Shown: positions 4,909 to 21,602 of the stretch, piece after piece | How the letters are laid out: every line of letters starts with the position of its first letter | Numbering within the stretch: position 1 is the stretch's first letter | Origin: an uncultured Actinomycetes bacterium | Lineage (GTDB): Bacteria > Actinomycetota > Thermoleophilia > Miltoncostaeales > Miltoncostaeaceae | NCBI GenBank assembly: GCA_903866425.1 | Contig: CAIPNN010000006.1 | Location: 1 to 34,267, forward strand | Length of the DNA: 34,267 bases | Direction of reading: 5' to 3' | The notes under the pieces: model-generated | What the model saw: only the letters and a program-made list of their open reading frames with translations | The model's database searches: none | Told to the model about the DNA's origin: nothing | Translations under genes and position numbers: made by a program

Positions 4909-6422
4909 GCGCTCGCCGACTTCGCGCGTGAGCGCGACGAGCGGCTGCGCGAGCGGCCGGCGCCGGTGCCAGCGGCACCGCCACCGATACGGGCGCTGCC
5001 CGGGGCGAGCGAGCCGTCTGACTCGAGCGTGATGGTCACGCCCAGATCGGTCTCGATGTCGGACAGCACGGCGTTGTCGTCGGCCGTGAGGAACCCCAGC
5101 ACCTCGGGGTGCACGGCCACTGCCACCGGCGACTCGGTGGTACCGGCAAGAGCCAGACGGATCTGACGCTCGGCGTCAATCGCGTGGGTCTCCGGACTCA
5201 CCACAAAGCCCTGGCCGCCACAGGTGGGACATGCCTGGGTCATGATCTCGCGGGCGCCGTCGCTGATGTTCTGGCGCGTCATCTGCACCAGACCAAGCGG
5301 TGAGATCTCCACCACGAACGTGCGGGTGCGGTCCTTGGCAAGGGCTTCGTTCAGCGCCTTGGTCACCGCCCGGCGGTTCTTCGCGTCATCCATGTCGATG
5401 AAGTCGATGACGATGATGCCGCCGATGTCGCGAAGCCTCAGCTGACGCACGACCTCGGCCGCCGCCTCGAGGTTGGTGCGGGTGATGGTGTCTTCCAGCT
5501 GCGTGTTGCCGCGGCCCACGTTCTTGCCCGAGTTGACGTCGATGACCGTCATGGCCTCGGTGTCGTCAATCACCAGCGAGCCACCCGATGGCAGGGGGGC
5601 GCGACGGCTGAGCGTTGAGCGGATGGCATCCTCAACACCGAAGTGCTTGAGCAGCTGTCCGTCGCCCTCCCACACCTTCACGCGCTCGGCGAGTTCGGGT
5701 GAGGTGCGACGCAGGAAGCCCACGATGCGCTCGTGCTGGCGTGGGTCGTCCACCAGCACCTCGTCAACCGAGTCGTTGAGGATGTCGCGGATGACCTTGA
5801 GCGACGAGTCGGCCTCGCTGTAGAGCAGCGAGGGTGTGTCGACCTTGTCGGAGCGCTCGCGGATGGCCTTCCACAGCAGGTTGAGCGACGCCAGGTCGCG
5901 TGCGAGCTCGGTGGCCGACGCGCCGGCGGCTGCCGTGCGCACGATGATGCCGCCGCCATCCTTGGGCAGGCGCTTGCAGATGTCGCGCAGGCGGTGACGC
6001 TCGTCGTCGTCGAGCCGCTTGGAGATACCGATGCCGTCACCAAATGGCACGTACACCAGAAAGCGACCGGCGAGCGACAGCTGCATGGTGAGACGGGCGC
6101 CCTTGGTGCCCATCGGGTCCTTCACGGCCTGCACGATCACCTCATCGCCCTTCTTGAGGAGATCGGCGATGAGCCGCTTCTTCTTGGGAACGCCCTGGGC
6201 AACGACATCGTCAACGTGCAGGAAGCCGTTCTTGCCGATGCCGACCTCGATGAACGAGGCCTCCATGCCGGCGAGCACGCTCTCAACACGTCCCTTCCAG
6301 ATGTGGCCCACAACGGAGCCCTTGCCACGGCGTTCGATCTGCACCTCTGCAACGAGACCATCTTCAAGAATGGCCACGCGCGTCTCGGCGCGGTCGATTG
6401 ACACCAGGATCTGCTTGATCAG
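4905..6422 (-). CDS. rng: ribonuclease E/G family endoribonuclease, RNase G-sized (~505 aa) with short Arg/Ser-rich tail; start probably CTG 6422 or ATC 6419 (the ORF track starts at GTG 6404)
   Basis: Contains ETRVAILEDGLVAEVQIERRGKGSVVGHIWKGRVESVLAGMEASFIEVGIGKNGFLHVDDV (S1 domain), DVNSGK, IVIDFIDM and the Zn-link CPTCGGQG. The frame stays open upstream of 6404 and encodes LIKQILV, matching the usual N-terminal strand of this family. Confidence 0.88.
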   Translation of the reverse strand: MIKQILVSIDRAETRVAILEDGLVAEVQIERRGKGSVVGHIWKGRVESVLAGMEASFIEVGIGKNGFLHVDDVVAQGVPKKKRLIADLLKKGDEVIVQAVKDPMGTKGARLTMQLSLAGRFLVYVPFGDGIGISKRLDDDERHRLRDICKRLPKDGGGIIVRTAAAGASATELARDLASLNLLWKAIRERSDKVDTPSLLYSEADSSLKVIRDILNDSVDEVLVDDPRQHERIVGFLRRTSPELAERVKVWEGDGQLLKHFGVEDAIRSTLSRRAPLPSGGSLVIDDTEAMTVIDVNSGKNVGRGNTQLEDTITRTNLEAAAEVVRQLRLRDIGGIIVIDFIDMDDAKNRRAVTKALNEALAKDRTRTFVVEISPLGLVQMTRQNISDGAREIMTQACPTCGGQGFVVSPETHAIDAERQIRLALAGTTESPVAVAVHPEVLGFLTADDNAVLSDIETDLGVTITLESDGSLAPGSARIGGGAAGTGAGRSRSRSSRSRAKSASA

Positions 6423-14251: not shown

Positions 14252-14791
14252 TCAGTACTCCGGGTTCTCGGTGACGTCGCTGCGGCGACCGCGCTCGACG
14301 CGCGTCTCCTCAACGGCTCGGTTCTGGGTGGGCGATGCAGGCGCAGCGCAGTACGGACACACCTGCCAGTGCGGGTCAAGCGGCTCTGAGCAACGGCGAC
14401 AGGGCTGGCGCAGCGACGTGGTGCAGTTGGGGCACACGAGGAATCGTGGGCCAACCACGCCCTCGCACGACGGGCAGCGAAGGCCCTCGACCTGGCTCTC
14501 AAGCGCGAGCGTCTCGAGCTCACGGTCGTGAGCGTCGGTGAGGTACTCCGGCGGGCGGATGAACAGGTACACCAGCGCGCCGAGGAACGGGATGATCAGC
14601 GCGATTGCCACGCAGGCGGAAATGGCCCCGGAATTCTCGAATCGGCGACGGGCGTCCTGGTACACCCAGTAGGCCAGCGCCAGCCACAGGGCCACGGCGA
14701 AGACCTGAATCAGCAACAGCGCGATGCTCCACGCGGTGGAGCCGAAGAAGTCGGAGGCCGACTGGAAGGGATCACTGCTCAAAAAGGTCAT
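14252..14791 (-). CDS. membrane protein: N-terminal 2-TM PLD-nuclease-N-like hairpin plus C-terminal double zinc ribbon
   Basis: ORF 14252..14800 trimmed to ATG 14791, which overlaps the folC TGA (ATGA). Two TM segments flank [29 protein letters not shown] resembles the PLDc_N motif. Four CxxC pairs are present: CPSC, CPNC, CRRC, CPYC. Confidence 0.7.
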
Positions 14792-16089
14792 CGACCCCAC
14801 ATCTCCTCGGCGTGGTTCTGGCCTGAAGCGGCGGCAAGCGTAGCGAGATCCGACAACAGGTGGAGAGATCCGGCCACCAGCACGGCCCCGTCAGGGCCGG
14901 CGTCAGCACACGCACGCTCGAGGGCGCGGGCCGGACCGGGCACGATCTCCACCGGCACACCGCGCATCTCGAGCATGCGGGCGATGAATTCGGGGCGAAT
15001 TGCCCGCCCAGAGGACGCCCGCGTCACCCGTGCCGCCGAGATGGCCGGCGCAAGCGCGTCGCAGATACCCGCGCAATCCTTGTCGGCCATCATGCCGATG
15101 ACCGCCACGGGCTTCGCATCGCCCAGGATCTCGGGCAGCGACTGCGCCAGGGCGCGGGCACCGGCCGGGTTGTGGGCGCCATCCATCACGATGACGGGCG
15201 CGCCGGCAATCACCTGCAGGCGTCCGGGATTCTGCATCTCGCTGATGGCACGCTCAACGAGGGCGCGGTCAACCGGGCCACCGAGCACCCGTTCCGCAGC
15301 GCCCACCGCCAGCGCGAGGTTGCCGCGCTGCCAGTCAGCGTGCACGGGCACATCAAGCGGCCCCGTCGATCCGTTGGGCGTGGAGATACTCACGGGGAGT
15401 CGGTTTCCGGATTCGACCACGATTTCCTGCCCCACGCGCCATCCGGTAAGGCTGCGTTCAGACACAATCGGCGCGACTGCAGCCCATGCCTCAGGCGACA
15501 GCGCCCCGATCATCACGCCCTCCAGCCCCTCGCGCGCGACGGCCAGCTTCTCGCCGGCGATCTCCGCGAGGGTCTCTCCCAGCAGCTCCGTGTGGTCAAG
15601 ATCAACACCCGTGAGCACCACCACATCGGCGTCGAGCACGTTCGTGGCATCCAGGCGGCCGCCCAGCCCCGCCTCCACCACGATCGCCTGAGCGCCCGCG
15701 GTGCCGAAGGCATCGAGCGCAACCGCGGTGAGTGCCTCGAACTGGGTGATCTGCCCCTCGGGCACGTCCGGCACCGCCGCCTGCACGCGATCGGCCGCCT
15801 GCGCGAATGCGCCGGGGCTGATGGGCACGCCATCGAGGGCGATGCGCTCATGCCACCCCATCACGTGGGGCGATACGTAGGCCCCCGTCCGCAGTCCGTG
15901 GGCGGTGAGGATGGCCGCGGTCATGCGCGTGACCGACGACTTGCCGTTGGTGCCCACCACGTGCACCGCGGGAATACCGCGCACGGGGTGCCCCAGGGCC
16001 TCCATGAGCGTCTGCATGCGTTCCAGCCCGAACTTCATGCCGAAGAGGTCGAGCCCCTCGATCCAGTTCTCCGCCGGAGTGCCTGCCAT
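14788..16089 (-). CDS. folC: bifunctional folylpolyglutamate synthase / dihydrofolate synthase
   Basis: ORF 14788..16266 trimmed to ATG 16089, 7 nt after the valS stop. Contains VHVVGTNGKSSV (Mur-ligase P-loop) and EAGLGGRLDATNV. It has the classical position after valS. Confidence 0.9.
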   Translation of the reverse strand: MAGTPAENWIEGLDLFGMKFGLERMQTLMEALGHPVRGIPAVHVVGTNGKSSVTRMTAAILTAHGLRTGAYVSPHVMGWHERIALDGVPISPGAFAQAADRVQAAVPDVPEGQITQFEALTAVALDAFGTAGAQAIVVEAGLGGRLDATNVLDADVVVLTGVDLDHTELLGETLAEIAGEKLAVAREGLEGVMIGALSPEAWAAVAPIVSERSLTGWRVGQEIVVESGNRLPVSISTPNGSTGPLDVPVHADWQRGNLALAVGAAERVLGGPVDRALVERAISEMQNPGRLQVIAGAPVIVMDGAHNPAGARALAQSLPEILGDAKPVAVIGMMADKDCAGICDALAPAISAARVTRASSGRAIRPEFIARMLEMRGVPVEIVPGPARALERACADAGPDGAVLVAGSLHLLSDLATLAAASGQNHAEEMWGR

Positions 16090-16096
16090 GCCGGAC

Positions 16097-18649
16097 CTAC
16101 CCCAGCGCGTTGAGGCGGGCGGAGAGCTCCTCCACCTCGGCGGTGAAGCGTCGCGCCTTCTCGCGCTCGGCCTCCACCAGATGCTCGGGTGCACGGCTGG
16201 TGAACCGATCGTTGCCGAGCTGCTTCTCGGCGCGCGCGAGCTCCACCGAGGCCGCCTTGATCGCACCCTCCAGACGCGCGCGCTCGACGACGGGATCCAC
16301 CTCAGGCGCCTTCACCAGCAGCCGGCCCCCGGCGATGGGCAGCACCAGCGCGTCCTCGCCCGGGTCGCCGATCTCCACGCCGGCGATGGCCGCAAGCGCA
16401 TCGGCGGGGATCGCCGACGGGTCGTCGGTGGCAATGGCGACCGTCAGCGACACACGGGGGCTGATGCCCTGCTCGGCGCGCAGGCCGCGGATGGCCTGCA
16501 CGGCCTCGCGCAGTGCGGCAATCGCGGCTTCTGCCTGCTCGTCGCGCGGCCCCGGTGCCTCGGCCGGACCATGCGTGAGCATGAGCCCCTCCGAACCGGG
16601 CAGGCGGCTCCAGCACTCTTCGGTCGTGAACGGGATGACCGGGTGCGACAACGCCAGCACCTGCTCGAGCGCCGTGCCGGCGAACTCCGGCGTGGCCAGC
16701 CCCACCTTCAGCAACTCGAGGTACCAGTCGCACAGGTCGTCGAAAATCAGGTGGTACAGGCCGTCGGCGAACTGGCTGAACTCGAACCCGCTCACCAGAC
16801 GGTCGCTCTCGGCAATGGCCTCGCCGATGACCGACGCGATCCAGCGGTCGCCGAGCGTGGTGGGCTGTGCCGCAGCGCCAGCCTTTCCACCGCGGTCGAT
16901 CACCAGGCGCGTGGCGTTCCACAACTTGGTCACCAACTGGCGGCCCTGCTTGATGCGGTCCTCGCTGAAGCGCACATCCTGCGTGGAGGTGATCATGAGC
17001 AGGCCGAAGCGCAGCGAGTCGGCGCCCTCGCGGTCGACCACCTCAAGGGGGTCGATGCCGGTGCCGAGGCTCTTGCTCATGCGGCGGCCATCGGGTGCCT
17101 GCACCACCGAGTGGATGTACACGTCGCGGAACGGCACCTCGCCCATGTACTCGAGGCCCATCATCACCATGCGGGCCACCCACAGGAAGATGATCTCGCG
17201 GGCGGTGGAGAGGACGCTGGTGGGGTAAAAGCGCGAGAGTTCAGGCGTGCGGTCCGGCCAGCCGAGCGTGGCAAACGGCCAGAGCGCCGACGAGAACCAG
17301 GTGTCGAGCACGTCGGCGTCGCGGGTCCAGCCGTCGCCCTCAGGCGCCTCCATGCCCACGTACACCTCGTCGCCGCGGTAGTACACGGGCAGCTGGTGCC
17401 CCCACCACAGCTGGCGCGACAGACACCACGGGCGAATCTCAGAAAGCCAGTCCTGGTACACGCGGCCCCAGGTGGGCGGTGAGAAGTTGACGCGGCCGTC
17501 GCGCACGGCGTCGATGGCCGGCGCGGCCAACTTCTCCATGTCGCAGAACCACTGCAGCGACAGCAGCGGCTCCACGCGGGCACCGGAACGGTGCGAGAAG
17601 GGCACGGTGTGCAGGTAGTCCTCGGTGCCGCGGATGAGGCCAGCCGACTCCAGGTCGGCAACCACAGCGGCCTGTGCCTCGGCCACGGTGAGTCCGCGGT
17701 AGGCCTCGGGGGCGGCATTGGTGATGCAGCCGTCCTCGCCGATCACCTGAATGGCCTCAAGCCCGTGGCGGCGCATGATCTCGAAGTCGTTGGGGTCGTG
17801 CGCCGGGGTCACCTTGAGCGCGCCGGTGCCGAACGATGGGTCAACGTGTTCGTCGCCGATGATCGGCACCTCACGGCCGCTCAGCGGCAGCGTGACGGTC
17901 TTGCCCACCATGTCGCGGTAGCGCTCGTCGTCGGGGTTCACCGCAACGGCGGTATCACCCAGCATGGTCTCGGCGCGCACCGTGGCCACCACGATCTCAC
18001 CCGACCCATCGGTGAGCGGGTACGCGATGCGCACGAGGGTGTCGGTGACCTCGCGGTTCTCCACCTCGAGGTCCGAGATGGCCGAACCGAGGCCCGGGTC
18101 CCAGTTGACCAGGTACGTGTCGCGGTAGACGTAGCCCTTCTCGTACAGGTCGACGAACACGCGCAGCACGGCCTTGGCGTAGCCGTCGTCCATGGTGAAC
18201 CGCTCGCGCGAGTAGTCCATGGTGCAGCCAAGGCGGGTGAACTGCTCGATGATGCGCCCGCCGTACTCCTGCTTCCACTCCCACACGCGATCGAGGAATG
18301 CCTCGCGGCCCAGGTCGGCGCGCTTGATGCCCTCCTTCGCGAGCTCCTTCTCAACCACCGCCTGCGTGGCGATGCCCGCGTGGTCGGTACCGCAGATCCA
18401 TTCCGCCTCGTACCCCGCCATGCGGTGACGGCGGATGAGCACGTCCTGCACCGTGCCGTTGAGGGCGTGGCCCATGTGCAGCGCACCGGTCACATTGGGC
18501 GGCGGCACGGCGATCACATACGGCGGCTTCGGGCTGGATGGGTCGCCGCGCGACACGCCCGACTCGCGCCAGGCATCCACCCAGCGCGCCTCCACCTCGT
18601 GGGGCTCAAGTCGTGCCGGCCAGGCTCCCGCGTCGCCCTCGGTGGCTAT
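16097..18649 (-). CDS. valS: valine--tRNA ligase; start proposed at ATA 18649 (the ORF track starts at GTG 18595)
   Basis: Contains [21 protein letters not shown] (HIGH-type motif), KMSKS ([10 protein letters not shown]) and a C-terminal coiled coil. The open frame upstream of 18595 encodes ...WPARLEPHE, continuing the conserved N-terminal block. GAGGAG sits 5 nt before the ATA. Confidence 0.95.
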
Positions 18650-19926
18650 GCCGACTCCTCAGCCTCTGCAAGGGGTGCGCGACCCGTGGCCTCGGTGACC
18701 AGGGTGGGCGGAAGGCCCTTCTCGATGGTCTCGCGCGTGACCACGCACTTGCGCACGTCCTCGCGCGAGGGCAGCTCGAACATCACGTCGCGCAGTGCCT
18801 CTTCGATGATCGAACGCAGGCCGCGGGCACCGGTCTCACGCTCAAGCGCGCGGTCGGCGATGGCGTAGAGCGAGTCCTCGCTGAATACCAGCTCGGCATC
18901 GTCGAACGAGAAGAAGCGGCGGTACTGACGCGTGAGGGCGTTCTTCGGCTCGGTGAGGATGGTCACCAGATCGTCGCGGGTGAGCTGATGCACCGACGAC
19001 ACGATGGGCAGACGGCCGATGAACTCGGGGATGAGGCCGAACTGCACCAGGTCCTCCGGCAGCGTCTCGCCAAACAGATCGTGTGAGTGGGCGCTCTTCT
19101 GGTTGCGCAGGTCGGCCGCGAAGCCGACGCCCTTCTTGCCGATGCGGCGCTCGATGACCTTGTCGATGCCGGCGAATGCCCCACCACAGATGAACAGGAT
19201 GTTCGTGGTGTCGATGGTGAGGAACTCCTGGTGCGGGTGCTTGCGCCCGCCCTGCGGCGGCACCGATGCGGTGGTGCCCTCGAGAATCTTCAGCAGCGCC
19301 TGCTGCACGCCCTCACCCGACACGTCGCGCGTGATGGAGGGGTTCTCCGACTTGCGCGCGATCTTGTCGACCTCATCGATGTAGATGATTCCGGTCTCGG
19401 CGCGCTTGATGTCGAAGTCGGCGGCCTGAATGAGCTTGAGGAGGATGTTCTCCACGTCCTCACCCACGTAGCCGGCCTCGGTGAGCGCCGTGGCGTCGGC
19501 AATGGCGAACGGCACGTTGATGATGCGGGCCAGGGTCTGCGCCAGCAGGGTCTTGCCACAGCCGGTGGGGCCCAGCAGCAGGATGTTGCTCTTGTGCAGT
19601 TCGATGTCCGAGTCGCCGGACTGCATCACCTGCACGCGCTTGTAGTGGTTGTACACCGCCACCGCGAGGCTGCGCTTGGCCTCTTCCTGCCCCACGACGT
19701 AGTCGTTCAGCACCTCGTAGATCTCGCGGGGCCGCGGAAGCGACTCCGACTCAATCGCCGTGGGGGCCGCAACGGCCTCCTCGTCGATGATCTCGTTACA
19801 GAGGTCGATGCACTCGTCGCAGATGTACACGCCGGGGCCTGCGATGAGCTTCTTCACCTGGCGCTGCGACTTGCCGCAGAAACTGCAGAGGAGCTGCTCG
19901 CCAGTGTCGTTCGTGGTCTCGGACAT
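18646..19926 (-). CDS. clpX: ATP-dependent Clp protease ATP-binding subunit ClpX
   Basis: 426 aa. N-terminal zinc finger [26 protein letters not shown], Walker [19 protein letters not shown], and an IGF-like loop region. Confidence 0.97.
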
Positions 19927-19932
19927 CTTCCG

Positions 19933-19972
19933 CCTGGTCGCCGGGGACGGTCAGCGACGACCGGGGATCAGG
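19933..19972 (-). promoter_or_regulatory. imperfect GC-rich hairpin between tig and clpX (possible attenuator or processing site)
   Basis: cctggtcgccgg (19933-19944) pairs with ccggggatcagg (19961-19972): 12 positions with one G-U pair and one mismatch, and a 16-nt loop. No U-tract follows. Confidence 0.3.
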
Positions 19973-19982
19973 CGCTCCGAGA

Positions 19983-21602
19983 TCACTCGGAGCCCTTCTC
20001 CTTGGTCGTCTTCTTGGCGGCCGGCTTGGCCGCGGCGGTCTTCTTCGCCGCAGGCTTGGCAGCACCCTTCGCAGCGGGCGTTGCGGACTTTGTTGCCGTG
20101 CTCTTCGATGCTGCAGGCTTCTTTGCAGCCGGCTTCTTCTCGGCGGCAGGCTTGGCGGCCGCCGTCTTCGCTGCAGCCGGCTTCTTGGCGGCGGGCTTCT
20201 TGGCTGCGGCCGGCTTCTTGGCTGCGGCCGGCTTCTTCTCGGCGGCGGGCTTCTTCTCGGCAGCCGGCTTTGCGGCCTTGGCCTCGGCGGCCTTCTCGCG
20301 CTTCTCACCCTCTTCGGGCGTGATGGCCGATGCCGACTCAACCACCAGGTCAACGGCCCTCTCAATGCGAAGGTCCTGACGCAGGCTCTCCCAGCCGTTG
20401 GCGGCGCGCAATGCCTTCAGCAGCTCGTCGGGGTCGCGGCCGGCATCGGCTGCGTCGGTGCGCACACGTGCCTCAACCTCGTCGTCGGTGAGGGTGATGC
20501 CCTCGGCGTCGGCGATGGTCTCGATCACCAACTCGCGGCGGATGGACATCTCGGCGTCGGCGCGCAGCGAGTCGCGGGCTTCCTGCATGGTCTGGCCCTG
20601 CATGGCGAGGAACTGCTCGAGGGTGATGCCCTGCGGCAGCTGGTGCGAGGTGTCGTGCAGGATCGAATCGATACGGCGCTCCACCATGACTTCGGGCACG
20701 TCGAACGTGGCCCCTGCAACGGCGGCGTCAATGACGCGGCGGCGGTAGCGCTCCTCAACGGTGCGCTCGGTGGCGGCGGCGAGGCGCTCCTCGATCTCGG
20801 TGGTCAGCTCGGCGGCGGTCGCAAAGCCCACCGACTCGGCAAGGGCGTCGTCCAGATCGGGCAGCACCTTCTCCTGCACCTTCTGCACGGTGACCACGTA
20901 CTCGATGGTCTTGCCCTTGATCTCGTCACGGGTGTCGTCGTCGGGGTACTCGACGGGGAACGACTTGGTGTCGCCCGCCTTGGCACCCACGAGTGCCTCC
21001 GTGAACGCCGGGAGGATGCGCTCGCCGCCAAGCTCGATGAGCTGGCCACGGGTGCTTGCACCCTCAATGGGCTCGCCGTCGGCGTTGGCCTCGTAATCGA
21101 TGAGCATGAAGTCGCCCTCGGCGGCCGCACGGTCAGTGTCTTCCAGGCGTGCGCCCTGCTCGCGAACGCGGTCGATCTCCTCCTGCACCGCACCCTCGGG
21201 AACCTCGTTGGGCTCGCGAACGGCCTCGAGACCCTTGTAGGTACCGAGCACCGGGGTGGGCGGTACCTGCAGGATGACGGCGAAGGCAACGCGCGTCTCG
21301 TCGGCGTCACCCATGTCCACTTCCGGGTCACCGATGGGCTCGATCTGGCTTGCGATCAGTGCCTCGCGGTACCAGTCGTTGAGCGCACGGTCGAGCGTCT
21401 GGGCGAAGATGCCCTCGCGACCCACGCGCTGGATGACGACGTTGGCGGGCACCTTGCCTGGGCGGAAGCCCGGGATGCGCATGCGGCTCGAGACTTCCTT
21501 GACGGTGCGGTCGAACTGCTTGCGCACCTCGTCTTCGGGGACCGAGACGTCCAGCTTGACGCGGTCATCTTCGAGCTTCGTGACTTCAACGGCTACGGGC
21601 AT
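19983..21602 (-). CDS. tig: trigger factor (ribosome-associated PPIase chaperone) with ~106-aa Lys/Ala/Pro-repeat C-terminal tail
   Basis: 539 aa. Contains MPVAVEVTKLEDDRVKLDVSVPEDEV...RIPGFRPGKVP (ribosome-binding signature GFRxGxxP), a central FKBP-like segment and a C-terminal arm. The tail reads KREKAAEAKAAKPAAEKKPAAEKKPAAAKKPAAAKKPAAKKPAAAK... Confidence 0.95.
   Translation of the reverse strand: MPVAVEVTKLEDDRVKLDVSVPEDEVRKQFDRTVKEVSSRMRIPGFRPGKVPANVVIQRVGREGIFAQTLDRALNDWYREALIASQIEPIGDPEVDMGDADETRVAFAVILQVPPTPVLGTYKGLEAVREPNEVPEGAVQEEIDRVREQGARLEDTDRAAAEGDFMLIDYEANADGEPIEGASTRGQLIELGGERILPAFTEALVGAKAGDTKSFPVEYPDDDTRDEIKGKTIEYVVTVQKVQEKVLPDLDDALAESVGFATAAELTTEIEERLAAATERTVEERYRRRVIDAAVAGATFDVPEVMVERRIDSILHDTSHQLPQGITLEQFLAMQGQTMQEARDSLRADAEMSIRRELVIETIADAEGITLTDDEVEARVRTDAADAGRDPDELLKALRAANGWESLRQDLRIERAVDLVVESASAITPEEGEKREKAAEAKAAKPAAEKKPAAEKKPAAAKKPAAAKKPAAKKPAAAKTAAAKPAAEKKPAAKKPAASKSTATKSATPAAKGAAKPAAKKTAAAKPAAKKTTKEKGSE
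19986..20303 (-). repeat. coding low-complexity tandem repeats (AKKPAA-type units) forming the trigger-factor tail
   Basis: On the plus strand, repeated ggcttcttggc(t/g)gcggcc and ggcttcttctcggc(g/a)gc units are visible between about 20100 and 20270. Confidence 0.85.

Follow-up and report, generated by a model that had tools for sequence, protein, structure and literature searches.

Initiation at codons other than ATG, GTG and TTG has been described in several systems. In E. coli, AUA supports ~1-2% of the initiation seen with AUG, and N-terminal methionine was found by mass spectrometry for other non-AUG codons, including AUC (10.1101/063800). The Streptomyces sigR gene has a GTC start with a strong Shine-Dalgarno (SD) sequence and is repressed by IF3 (Feeney et al. 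2017, PMC5472188). For the Deinococcus-Thermus group, ATA has been proposed as the start of infC, and ATC and CTG starts were reported for Deinococcus dnaA and rpsL, respectively, with 'at least four genes' having such starts in the whole genome (Baudet et al. 2010, PMC2830850). Overlapping stop/start pairs, in turn, are known to be coupled by termination-reinitiation (Huber et al. 2019, PMC6728339; Huber et al. 2023, PMC10666635; reviewed in PMC12548453), and mitochondria initiate at AUA via an f5C34-modified tRNA-Met (PMC5048346). Here we analyse the junction of clpX and valS, the gene for valyl-tRNA synthetase (ValRS), on a 34,267-nt stretch from an uncultured bacterium of the Thermoleophilia, family Miltoncostaeaceae (contig CAIPNN010000006.1; the whole stretch is referred to as the window). 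At this junction valS has no conserved canonical start codon, and it probably initiates at an AUA (GUA in most relatives, hence RUA) that overlaps the stop codon of clpX.

The junction resembles sigR in that an actinobacterial gene in an overlapping-codon operon has a conserved GUN start other than GUG with a strong SD, which gene finders mis-annotate. It differs in that the GUC of sigR lies in the upstream gene of an ATGA pair, whereas the RUA of valS is itself the overlapped start. Moreover, IF3 dependence and a regulatory role were shown for sigR, whereas valS is a housekeeping synthetase that is known here from sequence. With infC and the Deinococcus genes, valS shares the features of a housekeeping gene that has a lineage-wide near-cognate start and is recognised by a conserved N-terminus lacking a canonical codon. 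There are also several such genes per lineage, here valS, mreB (ATC), maf (CTG) and the RNase E/G gene (CTG). In contrast, N-terminal peptides exist for dnaA and rpsL while the case for valS is built on sequence comparison, none of those starts is GUA, and none is described there as lying inside the stop codon of an upstream gene.

The likeness to coupled NTGA junctions consists of a conserved, co-directional 4-nt overlap with two shared bases, an SD within the upstream gene and a probable GTGA ancestor. The described motif, however, joins a TGA stop to an NTG start, whereas the overlap here is ATAG or GTAG, with NTGA found only in the two closest outgroup loci, L021 and L022. Since a -4 overlap with TAG cannot use any NTG start, the valS/clpX junction falls outside the described motif; NTGA is the only form that the published surveys list. 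Mitochondrial initiation is alike in that an AUA start is decoded as methionine, but it involves a modified anticodon and a changed code, of which there is no sign here, ATA still being a rare internal codon. The mitochondrial case is relevant only to the speculative lineage-wide reading discussed at the end.

Anatomy of the junction and translation upstream of GTG 18595

All junction coordinates refer to the minus strand (Table 1). The 3' end of clpX reads GCT GAG GAG TCG GCA TAG, and valS is read in the -1 register relative to clpX. Its frame opens no earlier than 18658, directly after an in-frame TGA, and from there reads GGA GTC GGC ATA GCC ACC GAG GGC GAC GCG GGA GCC TGG CCG GCA CGA, continuing as CTT GAG CCC CAC GAG GTG GAG GCG CGC TGG. 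The GTG in this continuation (GTG 18595), 21 codons past the TGA, is the first ATG, GTG or TTG of the frame. The ATA has the bases TA in common with the clpX TAG (ATAG, 4-nt overlap) and is preceded by GAGGAG with a 5-nt spacer (TCGGC). GTG 18595 is without a usable SD because the only candidate, GAGG, abuts it directly (spacing 0). The only codons one base from AUG or GUG in the open stretch are RTA and GTC. Both ATA (2 of 385 Ile codons in the window) and GTA (10 of 608 Val codons) are still rare internal codons. A first-pass annotation of the window had placed the stop/start overlap, the GTG, the TGA and the GAGGAG with its spacer at these same positions, and had remarked that the GTG has no comparable SD; our analysis confirms both.

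Table 1. Features of the clpX/valS junction, with positions in the window
Feature	Position	Strand	Basis or remarks
valS (valyl-tRNA synthetase) as proposed	16097..18649	-	850 codons, ATA 18649 to TAG 16099-16097
Proposed near-cognate valS start ATA	18647..18649	-	ATA/GTA at same site in relatives; GTG start in L021, L022
clpX stop TAG	18646..18648	-	TAG in 22/22 ingroup genomes
clpX coding sequence, start ATG 19926	18646..19926	-	Open reading frame (ORF); conserved C-terminus ...PPTLVTEA...AEAEESA*; ClpX Pfam domains on orthologues
SD-like GAGGAG (GGGGAG in GTA clade)	18655..18660	-	GGAG core invariant, 5 nt before RTA
Block GGAGTCGGC-A-TAGCC (SD core, spacer, start/stop overlap, second codon GCC)	18644..18658	-	Nucleotide-level constraint
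Variable N-terminal linker, codons 2-9 (A T E G D A G A)	18623..18646	-	Length 7, 8 or 9 codons among relatives
Conserved block W P A R L E P H E, 5' of any canonical start	18596..18622	-	dN/dS, alignment, structure model
GTG, first in-frame canonical start, probably internal Val19	18593..18595	-	Equals Thermus Val12; inside predicted helix 16-30
In-frame TGA closing valS frame, 3 codons before ATA	18659..18661	-	Sequence
GTC, rival near-cognate start two codons before ATA	18653..18655	-	Invariant in 22 genomes

The product is a ValRS. Its translation carries LHMGHA and RMSKS, corresponding to the HIGH and KMSKS motifs, and PF00133, PF08264 and PF10458 were found on 99%-identical homologues, so that the tRNA-synt_1 core with both motifs, the anticodon-binding domain and the C-terminal coiled coil are all present. 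The window ValRS matches Thermus thermophilus ValRS 1GAX (E = 8e-50), and its AlphaFold model has a mean predicted local distance difference test (pLDDT) score of 87. Its top protein matches are valine-tRNA ligases of Thermoleophilia, family Miltoncostaeaceae, and cultured Miltoncostaea ValRS is ~68-70% identical to it. A pseudogene was ruled out by a ratio of nonsynonymous to synonymous substitution rates (dN/dS) of ~0.1 along the gene and a third-position GC fraction (GC3) of 0.90.

The sequence upstream of GTG 18595 was compared within an ingroup of 22 genomes. This comprised the window and 21 relatives with DNA (L001-L018, L026, L028 and L032), which are Miltoncostaeaceae-like metagenome-assembled genomes (MAGs) of the Thermoleophilia, recovered from lakes including Lake Mendota and stratified lakes in Sweden. 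The relatives came from a scan of species-representative genomes and are 82-97% identical to the window over the first 400 ValRS residues; graded outgroups were included as well. Across the ingroup, the nine codons of WPARLEPHE have proportions of synonymous (pS) and nonsynonymous (pN) differences of 0.50 and 0.10, respectively, and a dN/dS of 0.13, which is within the range of downstream valS blocks (0.09-0.17). Read in either of the remaining frames, these 27 nt gave dN/dS values of 1.9 and 3.4. Third positions are variable in seven of the nine codons versus second positions in one of nine, and every indel between RTA and the Trp codon is a multiple of three nucleotides. For the ATA clade by itself, dN/dS drops to 0.07 at a pS of 0.35, and the block must therefore still be translated and constrained there.

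Protein comparison and structure point the same way. In an alignment of 45 ValRS sequences, R13 never varies and P16 reaches a conservation of at least 90%; both residues precede Val19, which GTG 18595 encodes. Pro11 aligns to Pro4 of 1GAX, placing the block on 1GAX residues 4-11 and the GTG on Val12. In the AlphaFold model, residues 1-6 are disordered (pLDDT <50), whereas residues 11-20 have a mean pLDDT of 88. Taken together with the coding constraint, this indicates that ValRS begins upstream of 18622, where the available codons are all non-canonical. The first-pass annotation had taken the GTG for an internal Val of the conserved N-terminal block and had looked to orthologue alignments for protein-level conservation upstream of it; the alignment to Thermus Val12, the upstream dN/dS and the lack of frame-breaking indels bear this out.

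GTG 18595 could nevertheless serve as the main start in the window's subclade, the upstream 18 codons being an untranslated remnant or part of a minor isoform. The codon for Val19 is GTG or ATG in all eight ATA-clade genomes (ATG in those like L002), and gene finders pick this GTG or a nearby one (Val24, 18580-18578). We consider such a start quite improbable. It is at odds with the substitution pattern upstream within the ATA clade and has no SD at functional spacing. Of the 14 GTA-clade genomes, only L018 has GTG at this site, the other 13 having GTC, and the next Val codon varies among GTG, GTT and GTC. Initiation here would remove the invariant R13 and truncate predicted helix 16-30.

The junction across relatives

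All 22 genomes contain the sequence ...GGA GTC GGC RTA GCC... with RTA overlapped by the clpX TAG, and the co-directional 4-nt stop/start overlap of clpX and valS is kept in every one. Eight genomes (the window, L001-L004, L007, L008 and L032) have A as the variable base R, and the other 14 have G. Because most relatives carry GTA, the phenomenon is one of RUA rather than of AUA alone. An error of sequencing or assembly at the junction was ruled out, as 21 independent MAGs from different studies share it.

The 15-nt block GGAGTCGGC-R-TAGCC is invariant except for R in 21 genomes, as compared to the conserved body of clpX, where the third position varies in 21 of 24 codons. This indicates selection at the nucleotide level beyond ClpX coding. 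The constraint would fit an SD (GGAG) set 5 nt before a start codon that is followed by GCC as a favoured second codon.

No conserved canonical valS start was found in any of the 22 genomes. Leaving aside the GTG codons inside clpX that are weighed below, none has an ATG, GTG or TTG 5' of the conserved N-terminal residues that are folded in the model, and by its substitution pattern this stretch evolves as coding sequence. In 12 of the 22 genomes the valS frame is closed 3-28 codons 5' of RTA (3-5 codons in all ATA-clade genomes, 12-28 in four GTA-clade genomes), and none of these 12 has a canonical start before the Trp; the first one lies at +18/19, +22 or +43/44 codons, the last being four codons before PPPNVTG.

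These frame closures also bear on the possibility that valS needs no start of its own and that a programmed -1 frameshift near the clpX end yields a ClpX-ValRS fusion. The valS gene does lie in the right register for this (-1 relative to clpX), 10 GTA-clade genomes have no stop in that register until dozens to hundreds of codons further upstream, and a 1274-aa ClpX-ValRS gene call (P0049) is public. We regard such a fusion as extremely improbable. Throughout the ATA clade, a slippage would have to occur in the remaining 9-15 nt (GGA GTC GGC ATA), which contain no slippery site of the form X XXY YYZ, and no clearly covarying downstream structure was found at the junction. A consensus fold of the junction gave a covariation term of -0.73 kcal/mol with compensatory changes in three of 23 pairs, which is no convincing covariation. 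P0049 itself was rejected as an artefact, a contig frameshift inside clpX followed by a normal GTG valS start.

The outgroups suggest where the RUA came from. The closest of these, L021 and L022 (~71-72% identity), share with the ingroup an unusual [PA]-[AE]-R-L motif at the N-terminus. Their junction reads GAG TCG GCG TGA GC, in which valS has a GTG start in a GTGA overlap, at the codon homologous to RTA and with a weaker SD (GGCGAG or GGCGAA). In more distant relatives, valS starts with GTG or ATG 3-27 nt after the clpX stop. A ValRS tree built by neighbour joining has the ATA group and the GTA group as sister clades. With GTGA in the outgroups, the simplest history is GTGA to GTAG to ATAG, and the loss of the canonical valS start, as judged from these sequences, is confined to the ingroup.

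Probable near-cognate initiation at RUA

These observations are best explained, in our view, if valS has lost its canonical start and is initiated at the near-cognate RUA overlapping the clpX stop, aided by the SD and by reinitiation, and we consider this likely. RTA is one base from AUG or GUG, has the position of the canonical start in relatives and lies at a functional distance from an SD. In the proposed mechanism, AUA (GUA in the sister clade) would occupy the ancestral GUG start position. A ribosome terminating clpX at UAG, or one recruited by the GGAG SD, would place fMet-tRNA on RUA, the first two positions of which would pair as in AUG and GUG, leaving an A·C mismatch at the third. 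Contact of GGAG with the anti-SD would hold ribosomes that finish clpX, allowing them to re-initiate on the overlapping RUA, and this local delivery of ribosomes may compensate for the weak codon-anticodon pairing. The predicted product would begin with a short disordered linker, M-A-T-E-G-D-A-G-A, and continue into the conserved W-P-A-R-L-E-P-x-E-V-E-x-R-W. Between clpX and valS, the coding strand showed no promoter- or terminator-like site, and an Rfam search of the window returned three tRNAs only, with no known RNA family at the junction. An initiator tRNA was not found in the window and 27 related loci, where only tRNA-Leu, tRNA-His and tRNA-Arg are present.

AUA had been put forward as the initiator by the first-pass annotation. 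The start region and the position of RTA are supported by the comparisons above, whereas AUA as such is limited to the minority of genomes that do not carry GTA. That RUA itself is the start codon, that Met is inserted there and that initiation is coupled to clpX is what we infer.

Several points weigh against initiation at RUA. The need to encode the ClpX C-terminus (…E-S-A*) accounts for part of the conservation of the junction block. GUA has two mismatches to AUG, and as far as we found, no bacterium has been reported to use it as a natural start. In E. coli over-expression experiments, codons that are not near-cognates reached 0.1-1% of AUG (10.1101/063800), seemingly little for an essential synthetase if neither coupling nor factors particular to the lineage contribute. 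The GTG or ATG 18 codons downstream in the window's subclade might give rise to a second, shorter isoform. A GTG in the valS frame but within clpX (-1 register) occurs 37-40 codons upstream in nine GTA-clade genomes, and 393 codons upstream in L026. The GTG at -37 to -40 was rejected as a general valS start, because 12 of the 22 genomes have this frame closed between that position and RTA.

Finally, the GUC two codons before RUA could be the real start. Its product would begin M-G-I-A-T-E-G... in the window. This GTC is in frame, past the TGA and invariant in 22 of 22 genomes; GAGG lies ~7 nt upstream, and a GTC start with a strong SD has been experimentally established for Streptomyces sigR (PMC5472188). 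Its invariance is uninformative, however, because the conserved ClpX codons Glu-Ser (GAG TCG) force the sequence and because L021 has the same GTC beside a GTG start; in L022 the codon is ATC. The best SD core, GGAG, abuts the GTC with zero spacing, and the codon is neither at the ancestral start position nor as close to the clpX stop as RTA. We therefore consider a start at GUC unlikely.

A further alternative keeps the site and dispenses with the initiator tRNA. An un-recycled 70S ribosome would shift by -1/+2 nt after ClpX release and simply elongate, so that ValRS begins with Ile/Val or Ala. According to the passages of PMC2268962 that cite Janosi 1998 and Inokuchi 2000, un-recycled post-termination 70S ribosomes can restart at non-canonical codons near a stop. 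Drop-off re-initiation from the second aminoacyl-tRNA has been described where P-site pairing is weak (PMC10158994). The strictly conserved overlap geometry would suit such a restart. Initiator-independent restarts were, however, seen mainly with the ribosome recycling factor (RRF) inactivated or in vitro, and a conserved SD at 5 nt together with a first base that is always a purine (AUA or GUA) fits pairing with initiator tRNA better. Restart of this kind thus appears very improbable, and initiation by fMet-tRNA at RUA remains our preferred explanation.

Other apparent near-cognate starts and their possible meaning

Three further genes of the window, all on the minus strand, appear to start at near-cognate codons. 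In mreB, ATC 13023-13021 lies 6 nt past GGAGG 13034-13030 and heads a conserved segment, whereas the first ATG would remove the conserved I/M-G-F-F N-terminal segment. ATC at this site is order-wide: it is present in all loci of at least ~70% ValRS identity that reach the gene, most of them labelled Thermoleophilia or Miltoncostaeales-like. The ingroup and the closer outgroups L020-L024 and L059 share it, and it also occurs in two other lineages, L053 and L055. The homologous codon is ATG in Thermoleophilaceae and Solirubrobacterales. For maf, the domain-coding sequence starts right at the ndk stop, where CTG 13830-13828 overlaps TGA 13829-13827 (CTGA). The CTGA is kept in all ingroup loci that reach it (L002-L018, L028 and L032), and L020, L021 and L059 have GTGA. 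Distant Thermoleophilia such as L029 and L054 have a CTG after the ndk stop and no canonical start before L-A-S-x-S-P-Q-R.

In the RNase E/G gene, CTG 6422-6420 overlaps the TGA of an upstream 338-codon ORF (CTGA, 6419-6422). This codon is likewise CTG in the ingroup and in many Miltoncostaeales-like metagenome contigs (within the set L085-L114 and L161), several of which have GGAGGA upstream and no GTG until the conserved E-T-R-V-A. The homologous codon is GTG, TTG or ATG in L097, L103, L104 and L163. The view of the first-pass annotation that mreB, maf and the RNase gene need non-canonical starts is thus supported by the comparative data, the ATC and CTG codons being conserved here and replaced by canonical ones in other lineages.

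The other starts inspected in the window look canonical. Apparent near-cognate starts are found in four of ~28 window genes (valS, mreB, maf and RNase E/G). The usual fraction in bacteria is well under 1%, and four of ~28 is far above it. Gene overlaps in the window comprise ATGA (folC/DZR and mreC/mreD), GTGA (mreD/pbp2 and obg/proB), TGATG (pbp2/rodA) and the two CTGA junctions. The 4-nt geometry that had been noted at five other junctions is thus present, but as four canonical NTGA overlaps.

Some features of the neighbouring genes were recorded along the way. DZR denotes a small double-zinc-ribbon gene between folC and ndk (14252-14800, minus strand), which overlaps folC by ATGA; the order folC-DZR-ndk-maf-mreB is kept in the relatives L082 and L084. 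Upstream of clpX, the window has tig followed by clpX after a 56-nt gap without clpP (19926-19983), whereas distant relatives (L081, L084 and L165) have tig-clpP-clpX. The window trigger factor is 539 aa long compared to ~473-477 aa in distant relatives, and has a repetitive C-terminal tail. A perfect 8-bp inverted repeat, GCTCCGAG-ATCA-CTCGGAGC (19974-19993), brackets the tig stop TGA 19985-19983 upstream of clpX; it may form a hairpin that affects transcription or translation read-through into clpX. The ATA-clade contigs L002, L003, L004, L007, L008 and L032 end 0.1-1.6 kb upstream of valS, in or just before clpX. These contig ends near tig/clpX suggest a recurrent assembly break, possibly due to a repeat or to strain variation.

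The unusual valS start has left its mark on public annotation. The ValRS matches of at least 80% identity (P0001-P0032) and P0033 (73%) have truncated, mutually inconsistent N-termini, beginning for example with MDAW..., MEARW... or MGHALN, the last inside the HIGH motif. Public calls in the clade are 792-832 aa long, with one at 841 aa, and all are truncated. In contrast, most matches below ~71% identity start at least 8-12 residues before the R-F/Y-x-P-x-x-V-E-x-R-W block. Loss of the canonical start was rejected for the distant truncated calls P0100, P0072 and P0101, since L082 and L084 have GTG starts that were missed and the L081 assembly is frameshifted. Single-base frameshifts in clpX or valS were seen in the long-contig MAGs L165 (P0049), L081 (P0100) and L059, and such assembly frameshifts account for the spurious 1274-aa 'fusion' and for truncated ValRS calls in public databases. 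Gene finders limited to ATG, GTG and TTG mis-annotate valS, an essential single-copy marker, as well as mreB, maf and RNase E/G.

Separately, initiation at non-canonical codons and the coupling of overlapping genes have both been known before. What is new is an essential aminoacyl-tRNA synthetase gene without a canonical start across a whole clade. As far as we found, GUA as the prevailing start codon and a NUAG stop/start overlap are both undescribed; we found nothing specific in the literature on start-codon usage in Thermoleophilia, on GUA starts or on NUAG starts.

A wider and considerably less probable reading concerns the freshwater Miltoncostaeaceae-like lineage and, to a lesser extent, the order Miltoncostaeales. 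Start selection may have been re-tuned there, through IF3, the initiator tRNA or re-initiation, such that CUG, AUC, AUA and GUA are routine, stable starts for ~10% of genes, including essential ones. Starts at overlaps would then be free to depart from NUG, NUAG would form a new class of coupled junction and GUA would be a new natural start. Lineage-wide re-tuning of start-codon fidelity would, if true, be more important than the valS case alone.

A start overlapping UAG appears to have persisted through the diversification of more than 20 species, which suggests that coupled re-initiation sites may tolerate non-NUG codons. The GTGA, GTAG and ATAG sequences provide cases that bear on the stringency of start-codon checking by IF3 and by ribosomes that re-initiate, and outline a plausible evolutionary path in which the upstream stop codon was kept at the expense of the downstream start codon. 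By analogy with Streptomyces sigR in the case of IF3, ValRS output in these bacteria may be tied to ClpX translation and to IF3 activity.

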